Part shown: piece after piece, positions 8,851 through 54,659 of the stretch
Numbering within the stretch: position 1 is the stretch's first letter
Layout: every line of letters starts with the position of its first letter
Assembly (NCBI RefSeq): GCF_006345805.1
Contig: NC_043004.1
Coordinates: forward strand, 103,168,001 to 103,232,000
Origin: Octopus sinensis
Taxonomy: Eukaryota
Direction: 5' to 3'
Length of the DNA stretch: 64,000 nucleotides
The notes under the pieces: model-generated
What the model saw: the letters and a program-made list of their open reading frames with translations, nothing else
Told to the model about the DNA's origin: nothing
The model's database searches: none
Position numbers and translations under genes: made by a program

Positions 8851-9274
8851 ACTCTTTACTCTTTTACTCTTTTTACTCTTTTACTTGTTTCAGTCATTTG
8901 ACTGCGGCCATGCTGGAGCACCGCCTTTAATCGAGCAACTCGACCCCGGGACTTATACTTTTGTAAGCCCATTACTTATTCTATGGGTCTCTTTTGCCGA
9001 ACCGCTAAGTAACGGGGACATAAACACACCAGCATCGGTTGTCAAGCAATACTAGGGGGACAAACACAGACTCACAAACACACACACGCATATATATATA
9101 TATACATATATACGACGGGCTTCTTTCAGTTTCCGTCTACAAAATCCACTCACAAGGCTTTGTTCGGCCCGAGGCTATAGTAGAAGACATTTGCCCAAGG
9201 TGCCACGCAGTAGGACTGAACCCAGAACCATGTGGTTGGTAAACAAGCTACTTACCACACAGCCACTCCTACGC
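8851..9274 (-). mobile_element. SINE family A (tRNA head, CCTTGGGCAAG CORE-like box, internal (AT)/(GT) microsatellite, (AAGAGTA)n tail)
   Basis: Full-length copy of the most abundant repeat in the window. A-box TGGCTGTGTGGT, B-box GGTTCAGTCC. Confidence 0.9.
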
Positions 9275-10937: not shown

Positions 10938-11337
10938 GGAGTGGCTGTGTGGTAAGTAGCTTGCTTACCAACCACATGGTTCCGGGTTCAGTCCCACTGC
11001 GTGGCACCTTGGGCTAGTGTCTTCTGCTATAGCCCCGGGCCGACCAATGCCTTCTGAGTGGATTTGGTAGACGGAAACTGAAAGAAGCCTGTCGTATATA
11101 TGTATATATATATATATGTATGTGTGTATTTGTGTGTCTGTGTTTGTCCCCCTAGCATTGCTTGACAACCGATGCTGGTGTGTTTATGTCCCCGTTACTT
11201 AGCGGTTCGGCAAAAGAGACCGATAGAATAAGTACTGGGCTTACAAAGAATAAGTCCCGGTGTCGAGTTGCTCGATTAAAGTTGGTGCTCCAGCATGGCC
11301 GCAGTCAAATGACTGAAACAAGTAAAAGAGTAGAGTA
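10938..11337 (+). mobile_element. SINE family A
   Basis: Reverse complement of the 8851-9274 family. Confidence 0.9.
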
Positions 11338-11625
11338 TATAACAACAGTCTCGTAAAGTTTGTAGATCTAATAAGTTTTTTTGTTTTGTTACTTTAGCAC
11401 AATCGTGATATTTGCGTCTCTTTAAAGAAGGCTTATTGTTGGTCAGTGAATTTGTTGTCGGTGGATTGTCATCCTAGAAATTTTCCACACACGTGTATTT
11501 TCCGATGTTTCCAACGTTGTTTGCGCTTATTTTCAAGTTTTTTTTTTATTAATTCAGTTATTTAAATGTGCTTCAAATGTACAATGTTCATCTTTACTAA
11601 ATGATTGCTGTAGTTGTTTAACCTC

Positions 11626-12159
11626 TATGTCACGCTGGTGAGACCCATATTGGAGTACGGGATTCAAGCCTCTTCTCCTTATCTCCTCAAAGACATACAG
11701 CATCTCGAAAGAGTCCAGAAGCTGGCTACCCGCATGGTTCTTGGTCTCAAGAATTTGTCTTATGAAGAAAGGCTGAAGAAGCTCGACCTTTATTCTCTTG
11801 AAAAACGACGACGCCGTGGTGATCTCATTCTTGCTCACAACATCATAAGCGGAAAGTGTAACCTCTCGAAAGAGCTGTTCTTCACTCCTGCTCCAGAGCG
11901 TCGGCTGCGGGGTCATTCCGAAAAGCTCTATCTGCGACGATTTCATCTCAATCGAAGGAGAGGGGCTTTCTCCGTCTGGGTTGCGGATCCGTGGAATAAG
12001 CTGCCGGACGAGATGGTGAAGATGCCGACGATCGCTCGGTTCAAAGTCTCCCTTGACCACAAGTGGCCTGAACTCTTTACATGAACACCACCCTGTACAT
12101 AACTCCATGTCCCCCTACATGGCCTTGCTTTTGCTTTTTGAGCCAAAAAATTAACTAAC
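11626..12159 (+). mobile_element. 5'-truncated CR1/L2-group LINE, 3' end
   Basis: ORF reads LYVTLVRPILEY...LERVQKLATRMV..LSYEERLKKL.LYSLEKRRRRGDLI...LRGH..KL...WNKLP. It has a (TAAC)n tail and a probable TSD TAACCTC. Confidence 0.9.
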
Positions 12160-18410: not shown

Positions 18411-18769
18411 ATAATATATTATTATATATATTATATATTATCTAATATAATAAATCTCTGAACGAGATATAAACAGTAACCGCTCGACAACGTAAGGGGT
18501 ATTAGCCATCTGAATGTGGCTAGCCACTGGGGGGGGGGAGGGTTACTGATGCTTTTAGCCCCAGGCGATCAACGTCACCAGAAGGACTTTAGACACTATC
18601 TCAGTGCCCTTGTGTGATTTGCAAAGGGAAGTCATCCTCCCTCGAAGACCTTCGTTCAGAGATTTATTATTGTTTTCAGACAGTTTTTCTACATCAGTGA
18701 CAGTGATTACTGTGAAAAATGTTATATATTATTTGCAAGGGGACTCCTTCATCGAAGACCGGTGCTTAC

Positions 18770-18814
18770 CATGCGTTGACGAGAGGCAATTACCTTGAAA
18801 CTATAGTCCGTATG
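18770..18814 (+). ncRNA. Type I hammerhead ribozyme (U3/G8 core variant)
   Basis: Stem I CATGCG/CGTATG, core TTGACGA, stem II GAGG(CAATTA)CCTT, GAAAC, palindromic stem III ACTATAGT, and GTC cleavage triplet at 18806-18808. Confidence 0.85.
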
Positions 18815-19119
18815 TAGTACTCGGGTCTTCGAGGGGGATGACCTCCCTTTGCAAATAACACAAGGGCACTGAGATAGTGTCTAAAGTCCTTCTGGTGACG
18901 TTGATCGCCTGGGGCTAAAAGCATCAGTAACACCCCACCCCCCAGTGGCTAGCCACATTCAGATGGCTAATACCCCTTACGTTGTCGAGCGGTTACTGTT
19001 TATATCTCGTTCAGATTATTATGTTTTCAGACAGTTTTTCTACATCAGTGACAGTGGTTACTGTGAAAAACGTTATATATTATTTGCAAGGGACTCCTTC
19101 ATCGAAGACCGGTGCTTAC

Positions 19120-19164
19120 CATGCGTTGACGAGAGGCAATTACCTTGAAACTATAGACCGTATG
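19120..19164 (+). ncRNA. Second hammerhead copy, cleavage triplet mutated GTC>GAC
   Basis: Identical to 18770-18814 except GAC at 19156-19158. Confidence 0.75.
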
Positions 19165-19330
19165 CAGTACTCCGGTCTTCGAGGGAGGATGACCTCCCTT
19201 TGCAAATAACACAAGGGCACTGAGATAGTGTCTAAAGTCCTTCTGGTGACGTTGATCGCCTGGGGATAAAAGCATCAGTAACACCCCCCCCCAGTGGCTA
19301 GCCACATTCAGATGGCTAATACCCCTTACG

Positions 19331-19383
<53 letters not shown>

Positions 19384-21393: not shown

Positions 21394-22226
21394 GTCACAC
21401 ACACACACACGCCCAGAATCGACTCCAGTAATACACTGGTATTTATTTATTGTCTTTGTTCCTCATCTCTACACTGCTTACTCAAAAGACTTCTTTATAG
21501 ATTCTTTATAGACTTTAACCGGTCTGTCTGTTAATAAAGTCTAAAAGTCTGTATATTGTTGTTCTTCGATTAGTTTTATACCCAATAACCCTTACAAACT
21601 AACAATAGTCTAACAATTCCGATAGCTATCCTTATTCTCTGTAACTGTTACATCGTCCCAGTTCTTATTCATTAAACCTCAAATGAGAACCAGGGCAAAT
21701 TATCCAAACTATTTTTACAGATTAGGAGGGTCAAAAAGAAAAAAAAAAACAGAAAAGAAAAAAGAAGTTACTAATTCAGACATCATGTTGCCAGACATCG
21801 GACTTGTTGTTCTTTAGTCTCACGTGAACGCTAATTAAATAAACCATAATTAAAAGCCTTCTCCCGTAGTGTCCATCCTACATTTTTAACGAGATTCTAG
21901 GATTACGTAAACTAGTATGCCCTTCCTTGTTATGACTGTGGCCTTTGATTTGAGGGATATATAGCTACCATTTCTTCAAAGCTGAACGGCCACGAAGAAG
22001 CCTGCCTTATTGGTAAGAAGAGGTTCTCTTATTGATTAGCAGTAGGCTCTACTCTGATTAGCAGAGGCTCTGAAGAAGTGTTTCTCGACATTTTACCCTT
22101 GCGTGATCCTTAGAATAAATTACATTTCTCAAATAACCCCTGCACAAAAGAATTATATACTATATCTTTCTCATATCTTTTCATCGTAGTTCACGTGGTA
22201 AATATCATATATATATATATATATAT

Positions 22227-22443
22227 TACTCTTTTACTTGTTTCAGTCATTTGACTGCGGCCATGCTGGAGCACCGCCTTTAATCGAGCAACTCGACCCC
22301 GGGACTTATTCTTTTTTAAGCCCAGTACTTATTCAATCGGTCTCTTTTGCCGAACCGCTAGGTAACGGGGACATAAACACACCAGCATCGGTTGTCAAGC
22401 AATGCTAGGGGGACAAACACAGACACACAAACACACACACACA

Positions 22444-22501
<58 letters not shown>

Positions 22502-22660
22502 TACGACGGGCTTCTTTCAGTTTCTGTGTACCAAATCCACTCACAAGGCTTTGGTCGGCCCAAGGCTATAGTAGAAGACACCTGCCCAAGGTGCCACGCA
22601 GTGGGACTGAACCCGGAACCATGTGGTTGGTAAACAAGCTACTTACCACACAGCCACTCA
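22227..22660 (-). mobile_element. SINE family A
   Basis: Full-length copy. Confidence 0.9.
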
Positions 22661-26391: not shown

Positions 26392-27235
26392 TCAGGTCAT
26401 CCCACAAGTTCTGTCCGAATTTTGAATAAAGAAAACAAGAGATCAAATGTTATATTTAATTGAAATTTAATCATCAATGTACTTTCCTTGATTATCTATG
26501 ACTGCCTTCCATCTATTTACAAGCTTTTTAATCCCATCAATGTAAAACTCTTTTGGTTTCAACGCGAAAACTCTGATATGTCAGTTTCGACCTCCTCTTG
26601 GCTTGCGAAAGTTATGTCCCCAAAATGATTCTGTAAACTACGAAATAAATGGTAGTCTGAAGGAGCAAGGTCGGGAGAATAAGGTGGATGAGGAATTTTT
26701 TCCCAACCAAGCTCTTCGATCTTCTGTGATGTGATCTTTGCAGTGTGGGGTCGCACATTGGCCTGGTGAAACATCTCTCATTTTCGATTCACTAAAGGAT
26801 TCTTTTTTCTTCAAAGCTTGGCTCAAACGCTCTAATTGCTGACAGTAGACTTGAGCATTGATTGTTGTATTAGGTGGTAACAATTTAAAATGAATTACCC
26901 CTTGCAATCCCTCCAGATAGAGAGAAGAAACTTTTTCTCATGAAGTTCCTTTCTCGGTTGTAGTTGAGCTTTTTCCCTTTTACCAAACCACTGTTTACGA
27001 CGTTTAACATTTTGACAGAAGATCCATTTTTCGTCACCAGTCACAAGTCTTTCCAAAAAGTGTGAAATGAGTTTGCGAGAATGGAGAGAAGAACAGATGT
27101 CAACTCGGGATTTGCTGTTGCTTTCGGACAATTCATGGGGTACCCATTTTCCAAGTTTAGGAACCTTTCCAAGTTGTTGAAGATGACTATGAACAGTTGT
27201 ATGGTTTGAACTAAGCTTTATTGCCAAGTTTTCAA
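26392..27235 (-). mobile_element. Mariner transposase remnant, frameshifted, one TIR retained
   Basis: Motifs WVPHEL, TGDEKW, HQANVRPH (second catalytic D lost) and YSPDLAPSDY. TA|TCAGGTCATCCC terminus at 26390. The N-terminus is replaced by the element at 27248. Confidence 0.9.
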
Positions 27236-27247
27236 ATGTATGTATAG

Positions 27248-27858
27248 GGTGAAATCAATTAGTTTGGAATAATCATTAATTTCACCAAGTAGATTTCGGC
27301 ATGTAAAAGCCCAATTCGAGGAAGGTTTAAGTAATACTAAGTAATTAAGGGTTTAGCAACGATTTGCCTCACCACACACCGAATTTAGAAATAGCAGTCA
27401 AAGAGTTATGGCTATTCTTTCTACTTAAAAGGGAGATCTCAGTAAAACCACAGCACTTAAAAGGCAAACGCAGGCAAAAGAGAAAGAAATGACGACAATC
27501 ATTCTATATTAAGTCACCTACGGACGTACGTTTCGAAATTAAGTCTTAGGAAAGCATAAAAATTAGATAATTATGTCTTACCCGACTATGTTTCTCTTCA
27601 GCGTAGGAATCTACAATTATGAATAATTGTGTATTAAATTTGGAGGCACTAGAAGACATCACCTCAACTCATGGTATCAGAGCGAGCGTAAGCCGTTACC
27701 AGTACCACCAAATTCAAAGTGTGAATGAAAGTTTGTGTCACCAACCTCCTCCCACCAGCGTGCTCCCTTTTAAGTAGAAAGAATAGCCATAACTCTTTGA
27801 CTGCTATTTCTAAATTCGGTGTGTGGTGAGGCAAATCGTTGCTAAACCCTTAATTACT
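27248..27858 (-). mobile_element. Penelope pLTR-type non-coding element with a 96-bp inverted repeat and a hammerhead
   Basis: Inverted arms at 27340-27435 and 27763-27858, plus a one-sided extension at 27248-27339. Homologous to the element at 48700-49232. Confidence 0.8.
27517..27607 (-). ncRNA. Intact type I hammerhead ribozyme with extended stem II
   Basis: Minus strand reads CCTACG-CTGAAGA-GAAA...(long stem II)...TTTC-GAAAC-GTAC-GTC|CGTAGG. Stem I is perfect, the core is canonical and stem III (ACGTACGT) is palindromic. Confidence 0.9.
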
Positions 27859-30977: not shown

Positions 30978-31310
30978 AGTTCAGTCCCACTGCGTGGTAC
31001 CTTAGGGAAGTGTCTTCTACTATAGCCCCGGGCCGAGCAAAGCTTTGTGAGTGGATTTGGTAGACGGAAACTGAAAGAAACCCGTCGTATATATGTATAT
31101 ATATGTGTGTGTGTGTGCTTGTGTCTGTGTTTGTCCCCCTAACATCCACTTGACAACTGATGCTGGTGTGTTTACAATCCCGTAACTTAGCGGTTCGGCT
31201 TAAGAAACCGATAGAATAAGTACTAGGCTTACAAAGAATAAGTCCTGGTGTCGATTTGCTCCAGTATGGCCGCAGTCACATGACTGAAACAAGTAAAAGA
31301 GTAAAAGAGA
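30978..31310 (+). mobile_element. SINE family A with truncated head
   Basis: Starts at the B-box. Its tail supplies the spurious N-terminus of ORF 31256. Confidence 0.85.
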
Positions 31311-31322
31311 ATGACATACATA

Positions 31323-32975
31323 CACGGGAACTGGGATGCGGGACGAGCGTGTCAGCATATGCGGACGATGTCACCGTCATAGTGTCGAGCGACAAACACA
31401 TCCAGCTGATAGGCGAGACACTAAGAAAATACGAAACGGTGACGGGAGCGAAGATTAACCCGGAAAAGTCAGTGGGTTTGCTACTCGGCACCTGGAGAAG
31501 CAAGCCCATGCCGTCCAACTGTGGCTCAGTAGTGGGACGCTGGACGGACGGACCGGTTAAATTGCTCGGGGTCTGGTTCAGTCCGGACCTCCAAATGGAT
31601 AAGAACTGGGACGAGATCACGAGTAGAGTGGTCGCTCTCAGCCAAACATGGGCCGAGAGAAAGCTGTCTCTAAAAGGCCGGGCGGAGGTGGCGAACGCGT
31701 ACATCGCATCCGTCATCGATTACCGCCTGACCGTCGTACCTTGTCCCGACGCCACCATTTGCTGTCAACATCCGTTGAATGGAGGACTGGGCATGCCGTG
31801 GTTGATGATGCGCAGGCATGCGCTGAGACTGCGGCATCTCTGGAACTTCATCGACGACGGTGAACAGATGTGGGTGCCGTTTGTGAGGTGCGCCTTCCTG
31901 CAGCTCGTCTCACTGACCGAACTGCAATCGTGGATCAAGAAGAGACCGAAACTGGGCGATTGGCACCGAGAGTGTCGCCAAGCTCTACAGCAGCTCTGCC
32001 GACCGGGGTCAAACTTGTGCAACTTACAAACGACTAAAGCGTTCTATAGAGGACTAGTGGAGGGGAGGTCCGACGACACACTCGGGGCAAACCTGGGCGT
32101 CGACGAGAAATTCCTAACCCGCCTGTTCAGGACGACGTTCGGGCGGGGGCCTATAGATAACTTCCAGAAATCCCTGGCTTGGCAGTGCTATCGAGACGCA
32201 CTACCTGTTCGAGAGAAGAGCTACAGGCATGGTTCGAAAACCATCACCGGACCGACCTGCCCGAGATGCGGTCAGAGCGACGAAACCGTTCTGCACGCAC
32301 TCGTGCAGTGTCCAGATATTTCAGAGCTGTGGACCTTCGTCGAACAGCTGTTGTCACGTGTAGGTCGGGCCCGCCTATCGGCCGAGTCTATCGTGAGTAT
32401 TGTTCCACCACCTTCCTTTAAACGGGAAGGGAAAACGGTTTTCGTTACGCTGATGGCTATGGCGAAAGAATGTGTGTGGTGGACGCGTTTGAAAGGACTG
32501 CAAACAAACACCTTCCTCTCTGGTCAGTCTCTCGTCAACTTTTTCAAGTACCACTTGAAAAGGAGGATGAGAATAGAGAGGAAGGCTTTGTCGAACGAAT
32601 GTTTTAATAAAAAGTGGGTAAAAGTGGCAAAAATGGTCAGTATAAAAGACGACACTATTTTAAGCATAAATCTGTAAGCAAAAGAGACAACGAGAAGTAA
32701 GGCGACTTACTCATGTGTTCTTTTTCGAACTGTCTGAGGTGACCTTGGTCTTTTTTGTAGGTTTTTCTTTCCAAGGCTACACCTAAACTGTGAACTTTAT
32801 ATATATATATTGCTTTTTTATACACCACACAACCCACAGATCCCTATTGATCAAACGTTTTATTTTTGTTTTTGTTTTTTGTGCCCCACCCATCCCACCT
32901 CGAAAAGAAAAAATTCTACATTGTATTTCGTCCATTTTTATTCTGTGTTTAGCCCTGTGTGGCTACAATAAAAAG

Positions 32976-37505: not shown

Positions 37506-38448
37506 TAATGTGTGTGTGTGTGTGTGTGTGTGTGTATTCTTCTATTTGTTTCAGTCATTGCACAGCCATGTGTTGTACAATCACAACTTTGAGGGATTTG
37601 ATCAAGCGAAACGTCTCCAGTATTAATATGTTCTTTTTATCTATCGTTCTTTTTATCGCAACTGCTAAGTTACTAGAACTTCAACTCTCCAAGATTGACA
37701 GCCAAACGGTGGCATACACATGCACACACATGCATATGCACACATACATACGTACATACATACATATATGCATACATACATACATACATACATACATACA
37801 TACATACATACATACATACATACATACATACATACGTACGTACATACATACATACATACACAGATTAGGTGTGATTTTGTGGATACGGTCATATTTCTGT
37901 GGAAGACGTTACACATGATTAACAGCTGCCCAGAAATATCAACAAAGTACTACGTCCCTTTACGATACGACGTTACAAGAAAAAAGTCAGTTCTGGAAGA
38001 AATGTAGAGAATACTATGTTATTGAATTCATACACAAACATCAACACAAGGAATATTGGTGGAACATTCTCGTTCAAACATTTCCGAGAAGCGTAAACCT
38101 AAAAGGCTGGATATTGTTGTTTGGAACAGGCACAAACGTTTACACTGTAATAGGAGATAGATGTTCTGCTGATGAGAGCATGGAGATATAGATATATAGA
38201 TATGTAAACATGATAATAATAGAATATAGATAAAAATAATAATAAATCTCTGAACGAGATGTAAACAGTAACCGCTCGACAACATAAAGTATACTAGCCA
38301 TCGCAATATGGCTAACCACTAGGGGTGGGTGTTACTGTAGCTTTTTAGCCCCAGGAGATCATCGTATCCAGCTGGCTTTGGACACAATTTCTGTGCCCTT
38401 ATGATATTTGCAAAGGGAGGTCATCCCCTCTCGTAAACCTAAGTGATA

Positions 38449-38493
38449 CGCACGGACTCCAGTTTCGAGATTATTGTCTCTTGTCAACACACG
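38449..38493 (-). ncRNA. Type I hammerhead ribozyme (U3-A8 core variant), inverted copy
   Basis: Minus strand reads CGTGTG-TTGACAA-GAGA(CAATAA)TCTC-GAAAC-TGGA-GTC|CGTGCG. Confidence 0.75.
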
Positions 38494-38730
38494 GTAATCA
38501 CGGGTTTTCGATAAGAGAGACCTGTTTGCGAATATCTATTTAATGTTTTTCCCAGTAACCACTGTCACTGATTTCGAAAAACAGTCTGAAAGCGCTTACT
38601 GTTTACATCTCGTTCAGAGATTTATTATTGCTTTCAGACCGTTTTTCGAAATCAGTGACAGTGGTTACTGGGAAAAACGTTAAATAGATATTCGCAAACA
38701 GGTCTCTCCTCATCGAAAACCGGTGATTAC

Positions 38731-38775
38731 CGTGCGTTGACAAGAGACAATAATCTCGAAACTGGAGTCCGTGCG
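38731..38775 (+). ncRNA. Type I hammerhead ribozyme (U3-A8 core variant)
   Basis: CGTGCG-TTGACAA-GAGA(CAATAA)TCTC-GAAAC-TGGA-GTC|CGTGCG, with GTC at 38767-38769. Confidence 0.8.
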
Positions 38776-39089
38776 TATCACTTATGTTTACGAGAGGGGA
38801 TGACCTCCCTTTGTAAATATCATAAGGACACAGAAATTGTGTCTAAAGCCAGCTGGAGACGATGATAACCTGGGGCTAAAAAGCTACAGTAACACCCACC
38901 CCTAGTGGTTAGCCATATTGAGATGGCTAGTATACTTTACGATAAAAATAATGAAATATAGAGAAAGACGTTTTTTTTTAAATTGAAGATATGATATAGA
39001 GACAGTAATAGGCATTTAAAAAGAGTCTTGGGTAACATGTTAGAGGAAAATAAGGTGTTCCAACGATCTTATACTATAGACTCGGGATA

Positions 39090-39370
39090 TGTTAGACGGA
39101 AACTGAAAGAAGCCCGACGTAAATATATATATATATATGTATATAGCTATGAGTGTGTGTTTCTGTGTCCTTGTTTGTCCCCCATCACTGCTTGACAACC
39201 GGTGGTGGTGTGTTTATGCTCCCTTTGCGGTTCCGCAAAAGAGACTGATAGAATAATAGTAGGCTTTAAAAAAAAAAAGTCCTAGAGTCGATTCATTCGA
39301 CTAAAATCCTTCAAGACGGTGCCCCAGCATGGCCGCAGTTAAACGACTGAAACAAGTAAAAGATAAAAGA
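39090..39370 (+). mobile_element. SINE family A variant, partial
   Basis: Body and tail match family A. Confidence 0.75.
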
Positions 39371-40827: not shown

Positions 40828-42030
40828 CTATCCTTCAATAAACTGTATCCCAAATAAGCTGTAACGGAACATTGATAAATGATTTGCATAACGTTTTTTG
40901 AACGTTCCTTCACATATCCCGATATATGTCTTTTCGGTTATGTTATTGTTGTTGGAGGTTACAATCACATAAGTCGCGTATATAACTGACTCTGTCATAC
41001 ATAGTTTATCAAGTGGACAAGACTCAGATTCAAGACAATTACAGCCAGCTTCACTCTTCTGGCACTTGCTTCGTGTGATAATGTTTTCCACTGAATTCAT
41101 ATTGAACAATTTCCTGGATTTATGGTCACCCGGGAAGTGCTTATCTAAAAGCGCGTGGAATTTCTTGCCAATGTTTGTTTTAACGTTGAGGGCAAAAGGA
41201 GGGGCAAACCAAATAATATTTCTAGACCTATTCTTACGCTTTGTTTTATCACTATTGGTGTTTAGACTATCATTACAAGGGGACTTGTAAACTAATTTTT
41301 CTCTAAACCCGCTATTAGCAAAAGCTTTATTGTAATATGGTGTGGCCTTATTAAAAATTTCCTCAGAAGACGAGAGAGCTGACACATTTTTGCTAATATT
41401 CTCTATTAAGTTCCTAAGTACGCTCGATGGGTGGCAAGACTACTTATGTGTGTATGTAAGTTTTCCATTAATTTTATGAAACGACTTGTAAGAGGAAGAA
41501 GTTAGGTCGAAGGACACAACTAAATAATCAACTACAGAATGATAGGTAGTTACAGTAATTTTTAGCCCCAAATGACAAAAAGGAGAAATTAACCGCTTTC
41601 TAAATATATCATCCCGGTATAGTCCCACATTATAAGATAGGTAATTATAATGTTTTGTTTGTTCCTTCTCGAGCCATGCCTGGCTCATAAGGGCGGTATC
41701 CCGGTTTCCTTGGCGTATAGGTTCCTCACCTGGACGGGACACCGGTCCGTCGCAGGCGAGCTGCAAGATGCAGGAGGAAAGAGTAAGAGAAAGTTGTGGC
41801 GAAAGAGTCAGCAGAAGTTCGCCATTTCCTTCTGCCAGAGCCGCGTGGGGCCCGGTCTGAGATTCGAACCCGCGATCCCTCGACCGCGAGTCCGCTGCTC
41901 TAACCACTAGGACATGTGACACCTCTTAATTATAATGTAGTGTATGCAATGTTTGTGCTATCGTATGACCCCATAGAAACATCGAATAGTTCGTCACTAT
42001 TCGACATTTCTATCCAAGTTGCAAATGGCA
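40828..42030 (-). mobile_element. Degraded Penelope-like element (RT plus GIY-YIG endonuclease), interrupted by a SINE
   Basis: RT motifs FDVSMGSYD and GLYRDD. Downstream RNIIWFAPPF..NVKTNIGKKF, CNC..CPLDKLC..SVIY and YIGICEGTFKKRYANH. Confidence 0.9.
41652..41925 (-). mobile_element. SINE family B, tail type 3, internally deleted
   Basis: Homologous to 50311-50622. TSD TAATTATAATGT. Confidence 0.85.
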
Positions 42031-47878: not shown

Positions 47879-48346
47879 GGGGCTATATCTTAGAAATCCG
47901 CCGGTCCAATGGTTTTCATTCATGGAAGATTAAATAGTCAAGACTATTTAAGCATTTTATCTGATCAAATTCATCCTATGGTTGCGGAACTGTTTCCGGG
48001 GGGGAAATGCAATCTTTCAGGATGATAATGCACCAATTCACACAGCTAAAGTTGTTACTGAAAGGCACAAGGAACATTCTAGTGAATTTGAACATCTTAT
48101 CTGGCCACCACAGTCCCCAGATCTCAATATTGTTGAACATTTATGGGGTATTTTATCCTCCACCATCATCTCTACAACAACTGGAGACCGTTTTGGCTGA
48201 AGAATGGACAAAAATTCCTTTGGAGACAATTCAAACTTTGTACGAGTCCATATCTCGTAGAATTCAAGCTGTAATTACTGCCAAAGGCGGTCCTACCCAT
48301 GTGATAAATTTGTTTGAAATTTTAAGGTGTTTTGTCCAACCCATGT
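47879..48346 (+). mobile_element. Tc1-like transposase 3' remnant
   Basis: GAIS*KSAGPM..YLSILSDQIHPM, FQDDNAPIHTAK, WPPQSPDLNIVEHLW and RRIQAVITAKGGPT, ending in TTTTGTCCAACCCATG|TA. Confidence 0.85.
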
Positions 48347-48699: not shown

Positions 48700-49369
<670 letters not shown>

Positions 49370-52196: not shown

Positions 52197-52428
52197 TCTT
52201 TTACTCTTTTACTTGTTTCAGTCATTTGACTGCGGCCATGCTGGAGCACCGCCTTTAATCGAGCAACTCGATCCCGGGACTTATTCTTTTGTAAGCCCAG
52301 TACTTATTCTATCGGTCTCTTTTGCCGAACCGCTAAGTAACGGGGACATAAACACACCAGCATCGGTTGTCAAGCAATGCTAGGGGAACAAACACACTCA
52401 CACGAACACACACACGCATATACATATA

Positions 52429-52463
<35 letters not shown>

Positions 52464-52622
52464 CGACAGGCTTCTTTCAGTTTCCGTCTACCAAATCCAC
52501 TCACAAGGCTTTGGTCGGCCCGGGGCTATAGCAGAAGACACTTGCCCAAGATGCCACGCAGTGGGACTGAACCCGGAACCATGTGGTTGGTTAGAAAGCT
52601 ACTTACCACACAGCCACTCCTG
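52197..52622 (-). mobile_element. SINE family A
   Basis: Full-length copy. Confidence 0.9.
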
Positions 52623-53004: not shown

Positions 53005-53433
53005 TACTCTTTTACTTGTTTCAGTCATTTGACTGCGGCCATGCTGGAGCACCGCATTTAGTCGAGAAAATCGACCCCGGGACTTATTCTTTGTAAGCCT
53101 AGTACTTATTCTATCGGTTTCTTTTGCCAAACCGCTAAGTTACGGGGACGTAAACACACCAGCATCGGTTGTCAAGCGATATTGGGTGGGGGGTCAAACA
53201 CAGACACACAGACATATGCACACACACACATATACATATATATATAATATATATATATATATACACGACGGGCTTCTTTTCAGTTTCCGTCAAACAAATC
53301 CATCCACAAGGCTTTGGTTGGCCCAAGGCTATAGTAGAAGACACTTGCCCAAGGTGCCACGCAGTTGGACTGAACCCCCAGAACCATGTGGTTGGTAAGC
53401 AAGCTACTTACCACACAGCCACTCCTGCACCTA
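53005..53433 (-). mobile_element. SINE family A
   Basis: Full-length copy. Confidence 0.9.
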
Positions 53434-53699
53434 TAAAAAATTTTTTTTTAAATAAAATAGAATTTTTTTCAAAATGGGTAATTTATGTTAGATACTCATT
53501 CTTTCTGCTGGTTTCTGTTGCTGGATGGCGGCACAACTGAAAAATATCCCTTATGGGTTTAGTTGACCATATCGACTCCAGCAGGGATTTTCTTAAGTCT
53601 GTTATGCATTTTATCAATACATATTTGGCAAACTTGAATTACAGGGTATAAAAGTAAACAAAAACAATGATAAACCTGTGTGCTAATGTATGTATATAT

Positions 53700-54113
53700 A
53701 GGCGCAGGACAGGAGTGGCTGTGTGGTAAGTAGCTTGCTAACCAACCACATGGTTCCGGGTTCAGTCCCACTGCGTGGCACCTTGGGCAAGTGTCTTCAG
53801 CTATAGGCCCGGGCCGACCAATGCCTTGTGAGTGAATTTGGTAGACAGAAACTGAAAGAAGCCCATCGTACATATGTATATATATATGTGTGTGTGTGTA
53901 TATTTGTGTGTCTGTGTTTGTCCACCTAGCATTGCTTGACAACTGATGCTGGTGTGTTTACGTCCCCGTCACTTAGCGGTTCAGCAAAAGAGACCGATAG
54001 AATAAGTACTGGGCTTACAAAGAATAAGACCTGGGGTCGATTTGCTCAACTAAAGGCGGTGCTCCAGCATGGCCGCAGTCAAATGACTGAAACAAGTAAA
54101 AGAGTAAAAGAGT
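53700..54113 (+). mobile_element. SINE family A
   Basis: Full-length copy, head-to-head with 53005-53433. Confidence 0.9.
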
Positions 54114-54659
54114 ATGTGTTCGTGTGTGTGTGTTTGTACTTACATTAATGTTCTGTTGTGTATATATATATATAAACAAAATTTTGGGGAGGAAGATAAT
54201 TGATTGCATCTCAACTGGTACTTATTTTATTGATTTTAGTGAAAAGGCTGCTCCTCAGGTGTTTGGCAAAAATCAAAGTGTAGTGTGTGTTGATGGGAGG
54301 TGGGTATCATAAAATGGCACTTCTGTTCAGTTTCCATTAACCAAATTCCACTCACAAGGCATTGGTTGACCTGAGACATTAGCAGAAGATGCATACCAAA
54401 GTGCCACACCGTGGGACCAAACTTGAAACAGCAGAGTTGCAAAACATAATTCACAAGTACACAGAAATGCTTGCACCTTAAAAGTAAGTCAATAGCAAAA
54501 CATGAAATTTAACTCACAAAAGCTATGTTCAAATTTGCTGTCCTCTAACGTGATATTTCAGCTGACATTTCTACCAATTCCACCATCCACCCAATTCATT
54601 CAAATGTTTTTATTAGTTACTTCCAACATGTGACAGTAATGGTTTTCACATGACAGTAG

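Follow-up and report, generated by a model that had tools for sequence, protein, structure and literature searches.

The 64-kb window (the whole stretch of DNA that was analysed) contains, at 38229–38952, two arms of one repeat unit in opposite orientation, and the locus raises the question of what kind of element leaves such an arrangement and by which route it was inserted. We consider it very probable that the locus is a copy, arranged head-to-head within a 12-bp direct repeat, of a non-coding 356-nt hammerhead repeat present in high numbers, and that the locus stems from a single insertion performed in trans by the reverse transcriptase (RT) and endonuclease of a Penelope-like element (PLE) from an RNA longer than one unit. 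That is to say, the element is likely a non-autonomous retrozyme of the PLE type with a PLE enzyme as its inserter, which is the best reading of the features described below.

Anatomy of the inverted locus

The locus includes the following features (positions are those of the window).

38229–38240 (+), left copy of the direct repeat, likely a target-site duplication (TSD); the element end shares its last 3 nt
38941–38952 (+), right copy of the direct repeat, likely TSD; same 12-mer
38238–38593 (−), left (inverted) arm; exactly one 356-nt monomer, read in sense on the minus strand, with the tail end (terminus A) as its 3′ end
38591–38940 (+), right (sense) arm; a 350-nt permutation that begins within the tail, passes over the monomer junction (38629/38630) and stops at terminus B
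38238–38283 (−), Penelope-type tail, a 43–46-nt extension that separates termini B and A; lacking at the other outer end, and also present at the sister locus (18445–19335)
38590–38597 (no strand), inversion junction; an 8-nt palindrome in which AGC (38591–38593) is common to both arms and 38595 differs from the left-arm letter
38594–38629 (+), loop of the predicted arm-to-arm hairpin; 36 nt of tail sequence
38239–38301 (−), ATG-led frame of 21 codons running through terminus B into the tail; its position is as described for the pLTR and tail in PMC3846280

Alignment of the right arm (38591–38941) with a doubled left arm spanned the monomer junction and revealed 14 substitutions and 1 indel in 348 columns (~4% divergence), with the right arm 6 nt shorter than a full turn of the 356-nt monomer. 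The arms are placed head-to-head, with their sense 5′ ends in the centre and their 3′ ends at the flanks. The 12-mer GATAAAAATAAT occurs only twice in the whole 64 kb when both strands are scanned, at 38229–38240 and 38941–38952, and the match cannot be extended. Because the final AAT and the first G of this repeat also match the element ends, the length of the duplication is 8–12 bp. A sequence-only reading of the locus had described a left unit of one full turn, a right unit that reads across the end-to-start junction (quoted at 38613–38639) and a 12-bp TSD from a single insertion event; all three descriptions agree with the alignment and with an exact 12-mer flush with both ends, save that the edges of the TSD are ambiguous.

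The locus has no long open reading frame (ORF) and no ORF with RT and GIY-YIG domains as in an autonomous PLE; the 21-codon ATG frame is the only one present. This frame exists in both subfamilies, at the place where pLTRs hold an ORF start, with 4 of its 21 residues differing and with no clear constraint, and might conceivably be a vestige of the start of a PLE ORF.

The window includes one further copy of the family.

18445–19335 (no strand), sister locus, ~80% identical; an inverted arm of ~205 nt ending at terminus A and 1.9 tandem sense units (18652–19335) ending at terminus B, within an (AT)n tract

The sister locus has the same two outer ends, 43–46 nt apart in the unit, as the locus at 38229–38952, and its TSD is not readable because it sits in (AT)n. 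The monomers of the 2 loci are 356 and 355 nt long with GC contents of 0.42 and 0.45. The tandem-unit junction of the sister locus (19007–19023) lacks ~4 nt exactly at the tail end; the junctions at 18652–18680 and 38610–38639 are intact. In addition, a lone off-template base completes a small local palindrome at each of the inversion junctions (38590–38597 and 18643–18654), as expected of self-priming (n = 2).

These features bear on 2 alternatives that involve DNA rather than RNA. The first is an inversion at the DNA level after insertion, through two insertions or through replication fold-back or repair of a tandem array, the 12-bp repeat being a chance match or a by-product. Long inverted repeats can arise by template switching, and the 4% difference between the arms and the A/T-rich flanks would suit such an origin. 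By contrast, (i) the probability of the exact 12-mer at a given place, flush with both ends, is ~3e-6, or ~6e-5 for its 9-bp version, according to local base frequencies; (ii) both outer ends are the fixed termini of the family, and the arms share at least 5 minority letters; and (iii) the geometry recurs, both at the sister locus and in further contigs. We therefore regard this origin as very unlikely. The second alternative, a MITE or fold-back DNA transposon with long terminal inverted repeats (TIRs) and hammerhead-like text by chance, is hardly credible. The long inverted repeat and the TSD would be explained by it, and the window has other palindromic elements, but the ends of the locus are asymmetric, with the 43–46-nt tail at one of them only, in place of symmetric TIRs or a fixed structure; the centre is not constant from copy to copy; the family also has a tandem form; and the hammerhead has compensatory pairs.

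The surroundings of the locus are repeat-rich. In the flanks (37990–38240 and 38953–39110), which are both moderately repeated, frames read on across the insertion site, and from the likeness of their motifs they may derive from a single decayed non-LTR element that the insertion interrupted; Pfam analysis of 4 flank frames returned 0 families. A broken PLE-like ORF remnant (40828–41925, −), interrupted by another repeat, is located 2 kb away. Pfam gave 0 matches for this remnant; for a 203-aa part of it, the nearest atlas clusters (0.94–0.96) contained GIY-YIG in 18–27% and HTH_animal in 29–55% of their members where any family was common. In scans of viral, metagenome, and prokaryote genome collections, no autonomous PLE sharing the terminus of the family was found, and the remnant has no DNA match to the 356-nt unit. 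Other transposon remnants are a LINE ORF with RT and zf-RVT domains (31220–32677, +), a mariner-type Transposase_1 (26641–27254, −), a DDE_3 (47952–48197, +) and a LINE-like C-terminal ORF recognized by eye only (11614–12084, +). Two long inverted repeats, at 27340–27858 (96 bp, 100%) and 48783–49244 (148 bp, 97%), have no hammerhead matches and are likely of MITE type. An interspersed repeat of ~400–430 bp exists in more than 10 copies of 80–94% identity in both orientations (for example, 8870–9270, 10938–11332, 22226–22659, 52200–52622, and 53005–54115), and these copies would yield far more double-stranded RNA (dsRNA) than the locus at 38229–38952. No tRNA genes were found in the 64-kb window.

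The family and its hammerhead

The sequence-only reading had named a lack of other family copies as a ground for abandoning its interpretation. Copies were found: besides the sister locus, 4460, 4668, and 2675 contigs in three DNA runs align to the element (figures that are not a copy number), and the summed contig depth on the element is orders of magnitude above that of a unique flank bin. Among the matches listed, contigs have loose ends behind 38940, the right-arm end at terminus B (45, 34, and 31 contigs of X1, X2, and X5, respectively), and behind 38633, which is tail end A within ~4 nt (50 contigs of X2). At least 8 distinct antisense-to-sense joints at scattered places were counted among 15 of 46 and 12 of 38 joints, leaving out three "opposite strands" joints whose direction is not given. 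We read these joints as inversion junctions of other copies; their sides are 21–30 nt long at a min_likeness of 85, and some could be deletions or misassemblies. At no fewer than 5 positions (30 of the 40 listed variant rows were tested), both arms share a letter that differs from at least 80% of the family depth in X1 and X2, which points to one template or one small subfamily.

At the locus itself, the contigs are less informative. The best 15 of 46 contig joints do not include an empty-site joint from 38240 to 38953 with a single TSD copy, and contigs show presence, not absence. Flank-to-flank joints from 38238/43 to 39016/19 occur in three runs, the intervening letters being not known. The right junction is covered by one X2 and one X5 record with only 23 letters within the element (the bar being 31), so that sharing across the organism labels is only a hint. 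X14, a guessed RNA run, has 366 contigs, which come from the family and are uninformative on this locus. Two motifs of the family had 0 matches in the viral, metagenome, and prokaryote genome collections.

Each arm contains a putative hammerhead.

38723–38781 (+), type I hammerhead of the right arm; core 38737–38769 with U3–A8; predicted cut 3′ of C38769
38443–38501 (−), type I hammerhead of the left arm; core 38487–38455 with U3–A8; one helix I G–C pair changed to G–U

The right-arm hammerhead is composed of a helix I of 6 bp, a bulge and 5 bp, a 4-bp helix II capped by a 6-nt loop, and a short helix III whose loop has 2 nt. On both strands of the window, the hammerhead descriptor matched these two cores and otherwise just the two units of the sister locus; the hammerheads on both strands proposed by the sequence-only reading, together with the predicted cut, agree with these matches. 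Rfam analysis returned 0 matches at the gathering threshold and no hammerhead at E ≤ 10. Its sub-threshold matches (12 and 4; miRNA, rox1, snoRNA, and others) were rejected as hairpin look-alikes.

Across 4 copies from 2 subfamilies, 95.7% of 116 hammerhead pairing cells are paired, and 4 pairs are changed on both sides between the subfamilies, with at most 1 such pair in slid controls. A column shuffle attained 4 two-sided pairs in 254 of 500 trials, so with 4 sequences of 2 subfamilies the observed count is not above the shuffle. Within the family, the structure of the ribozyme motif is constrained. Most of the depth in family contigs has A8, and G accounts for 3% (X1) and 14% (X2); therefore, the U3–A8 core is not a decay of this copy. 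The helix III loop of the family is palindromic (38765 G>C in 97% and 83% of depth), and this palindrome is lost in both arms here. The monomer has a circular fold z of −3.7 and is predicted to be highly self-paired.

The hammerheads of the sister locus (18776–18808 and 19126–19158) have a U3·G8 core, not U3–A8; helix III is fully palindromic in unit 1, and unit 2 has lost U16.1. Behind 38466, a loose end in X2 (6 contigs, agreement 0.74) gives, when reverse-complemented, a canonical CUGAUGA core followed by helix II, from which other subfamilies seem to keep C3–G8.

In a read-through RNA of either strand, the hammerhead motif comes 3′ of its own complement. The predicted arm-to-arm duplex involves 309/310 nt with 298 pairs closed by the 36-nt loop, and has perfect runs of 52, 49, and 38 bp. 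Forcing helices I and II in this RNA is predicted to cost 98 and 105 kcal/mol, compared with 2.4 in a single arm, and the predicted helix III homodimer has −2.0 kcal/mol here versus −7.2 kcal/mol at the sister locus. A hammerhead with a weak helix III needs a tandem partner (PMC4209133); in these models, the ribozyme would be buried in the duplex and without a dimer partner. An active ribozyme in the read-through RNA was rejected on this folding penalty and this weak homodimer. Since the motif follows its own complement and forcing it would cost 98–105 kcal/mol, the copy at 38229–38952 would likely not cleave in read-through RNA; that is to say, it is likely silent as a ribozyme there. The sequence-only reading had expected a transcript in either direction to hold one ribozyme and a dsRNA hairpin of ~340 bp. 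One motif per strand and a long hairpin are retained, but the hairpin is nearer 300 bp (298 pairs) and the ribozyme is predicted to be trapped.

The same reading had proposed a substrate for ADAR or Dicer. If transcribed through, the locus would plausibly provide a good ~300-bp substrate, given its perfect runs, but a generic one: repeat-derived dsRNA, palindromic repeats included, dominates hyper-editing, and Penelope of a lizard is already reported among the heavily edited families (PMC5625713). Co-option of the locus as a regulatory dsRNA or a self-cleaving switch, for which the predicted duplex and ADAR hyper-editing of such repeats could speak, is in our view highly improbable. The arms are drifting apart through non-compensated changes, several of them at CpG sites; 93 non-repeat ORFs and 8 others gave no host-gene Pfam match, with only transposon domains at E ≤ 0.001; and related contigs number in the thousands.

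Priming and the form of the template

The arrangement of arms, tail, and TSD could be produced by a PLE enzyme in 5 steps: (i) a staggered cut in A/T-rich DNA would expose two 3′ ends; (ii) the right end would prime cDNA at an internal RNA site (site B), and 350 nt would be copied over the monomer junction; (iii) the left end would prime at a second site (site A), ~45 nt further 3′, which would leave the tail at that end only; (iv) the AGC microhomology would serve to join the strands, directly at their ends or with the B-primed cDNA snapping back over the 36-nt loop and copying itself; and (v) fill-in would leave the TSD. A snap-back would fix the inner end of the left arm, so that the exact 356 nt of the left arm would be explained from the length of the right arm.

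These steps agree with what is described for a purified PLE protein. It cuts and extends both target strands and favours A/T-rich DNA, its RT starts from two internal positions on either side of the tail, and in vitro the hammerhead cleavage is dispensable and unprocessed RNA is the main template (PMC11167929).

The sequence-only reading had concluded that the template was circular or tandem. A template longer than the unit is supported by the right arm, which spans the monomer junction; since tandem units occur at the sister locus, the permuted order gives no preference for a circle. Sense arms begin again within the tail, 6–26 nt below a whole turn, in 3 of the 8 contig joints (38607, 38609, and 38611) and at both loci of the window. 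For these 5 of 10 cases, the binomial P is 0.003, and for the contigs alone it is 0.06; both values refer to a 21-nt window in 180 mappable nt that was picked post hoc, and to joints among those listed. This clustering is not decisive: it would be expected whether the RT stalled on a circle or the RNA had its 5′ end in the upstream tail. When the sister locus was compared three ways (11 differing columns), the circular and the tandem template did not separate.

It is possible, though doubtful, that the same PLE enzyme copied a circular monomer RNA, with the RT running one turn and stalling at its own bound start site, so that the arms are one turn long. The arm lengths (356/356 and 350/356 nt), the restarts within the tail in 5 of 10 cases (joints among those listed) and the predicted self-pairing of the monomer would fit such a template; circular RNAs (circRNAs) are produced by mussel and coral retrozymes (PMC7229834), and circles have been proposed as templates for PLEs (PMC4209133). 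Against this, equal lengths would result from a linear RNA that was transcribed from a tandem locus and began in the tail of the upstream unit, and such tandem DNA exists at the sister locus; a snap-back sets the left inner end, which leaves one coincidence rather than two; the ribozyme cut does not coincide with the arm ends; and the in vitro result cited above makes cleavage dispensable. A bolder form of the same idea, which we consider unlikely, is that the insertions are fossil records of a Penelope RT copying circular ribozyme RNA, starting at either of the sites that flank the tail, running whole turns and stalling 6–26 nt before its own start. If so, arm lengths would be quantised at n × 356, which would constitute direct genomic proof that the circles of animal retrozymes serve as the PLE template and provide a read-out of how inverted arms are made. 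We still prefer the reading in which a PLE enzyme inserted the element from an RNA exceeding one unit. With many copies of variable centre, the questions of a circular or tandem template and of twin priming or snap-back become answerable by counting, and the whole-turn clustering of inner ends in the tail is the part worth a genome-wide count.

Comparison with PLEs, retrozymes, and LINE-1

PLE insertions often carry an inverted 5′-truncated copy and a 30–40-bp tail at one end (PMC8557442). In PLE pLTR insertions, TSDs of 8–10 bp are described, those with an inverted pLTR being 9–10 bp long, together with a tail on one arm and junction palindromes, and head-to-head is the commonest order (PMC3846280). 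Opposite-strand hammerhead pairs 100–700 bp apart and U3–A8 cores are known from PLEs as well (PMC4209133). A head-to-head inverted 5′-truncated copy is found here, at the sister locus and in at least 8 contig joints, and two fixed 3′ termini with a tail at one end are present at both loci. Comparison of the locus with PLE insertions (PMC3846280, PMC8557442, PMC11167929, and PMC4209133) revealed that (i) the head-to-head inverted copy, the tail at one outer end only, the likely TSD of 8–12 bp, the junction palindrome and microhomology, partial tandems, A/T-rich and microsatellite targets, a hammerhead in the repeat and its U3–A8 variant are shared; (ii) unlike PLEs, the locus has no ORF, and the entire unit is a closed 356-nt repeat; (iii) the tail of 43–46 nt is longer than the quoted 30–40 bp; and (iv) the PLE hammerhead is of the minimal type, whereas the hammerhead here has the canonical size, with 6 bp in helix I and 4 bp in helix II. 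The special circularly permuted dimer of the sequence-only reading is thus not upheld, because the inverted layout with tail and TSD is a known PLE footprint (PMC8557442, PMC3846280, and PMC4209133) and recurs in other copies.

Metazoan non-LTR retrozymes have monomers of 150–450 bp (mussel ~350–390) (PMC7229834). The locus shares with them the size range, a GC content of 42–45% (below 50%), a non-coding unit with one type I hammerhead, a tandem form, many copies, a TSD of more than 4 bp, and a strongly self-paired monomer, and differs from them in its inverted arrangement and its tail; the word "inverted" is absent from the main text of PMC7229834 and occurs once in a preprint on animal retrozymes (10.64898/2026.07.22.740005). 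Where retrozymes have at least two tandem hammerheads on one strand, the locus has one per strand, and the sister locus has 1.9 tandem units, the second motif being without U16.1. Because of its one hammerhead per strand, the locus falls outside the rule of two tandem hammerheads by which that preprint defines an active copy. The comparison supports a retrozyme-like unit at 38229–38952. In the literature on octopus, Penelope, and hammerhead repeats, at the level of titles and abstract openings (supplements being outside this scope), no description of this 356-nt family was found.

Taken alone, the locus is no more than ordinary transposon debris. Its family, by contrast, unites a retrozyme unit with a hammerhead of canonical size and the full PLE footprint of tail, inverted arm, and TSD, which are usually described apart. 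The preprint argued from vertebrate phylogeny that animal retrozymes derive from PLE pLTRs, and itself names that limit (10.64898/2026.07.22.740005); the family adds mechanistic support, from an invertebrate-like genome, for a life cycle of animal retrozymes that is driven by PLEs.

The closest parallel outside these elements is LINE-1. In the 5′ inversions that arise by twin priming of LINE-1, two target ends prime on the RNA, which gives a head-to-head inversion with a microhomology joint inside a TSD. Unlike LINE-1, the locus has no poly(A), two fixed internal start sites are used, and the arms overlap across the whole unit; because of this overlap, the result here is a long palindrome.
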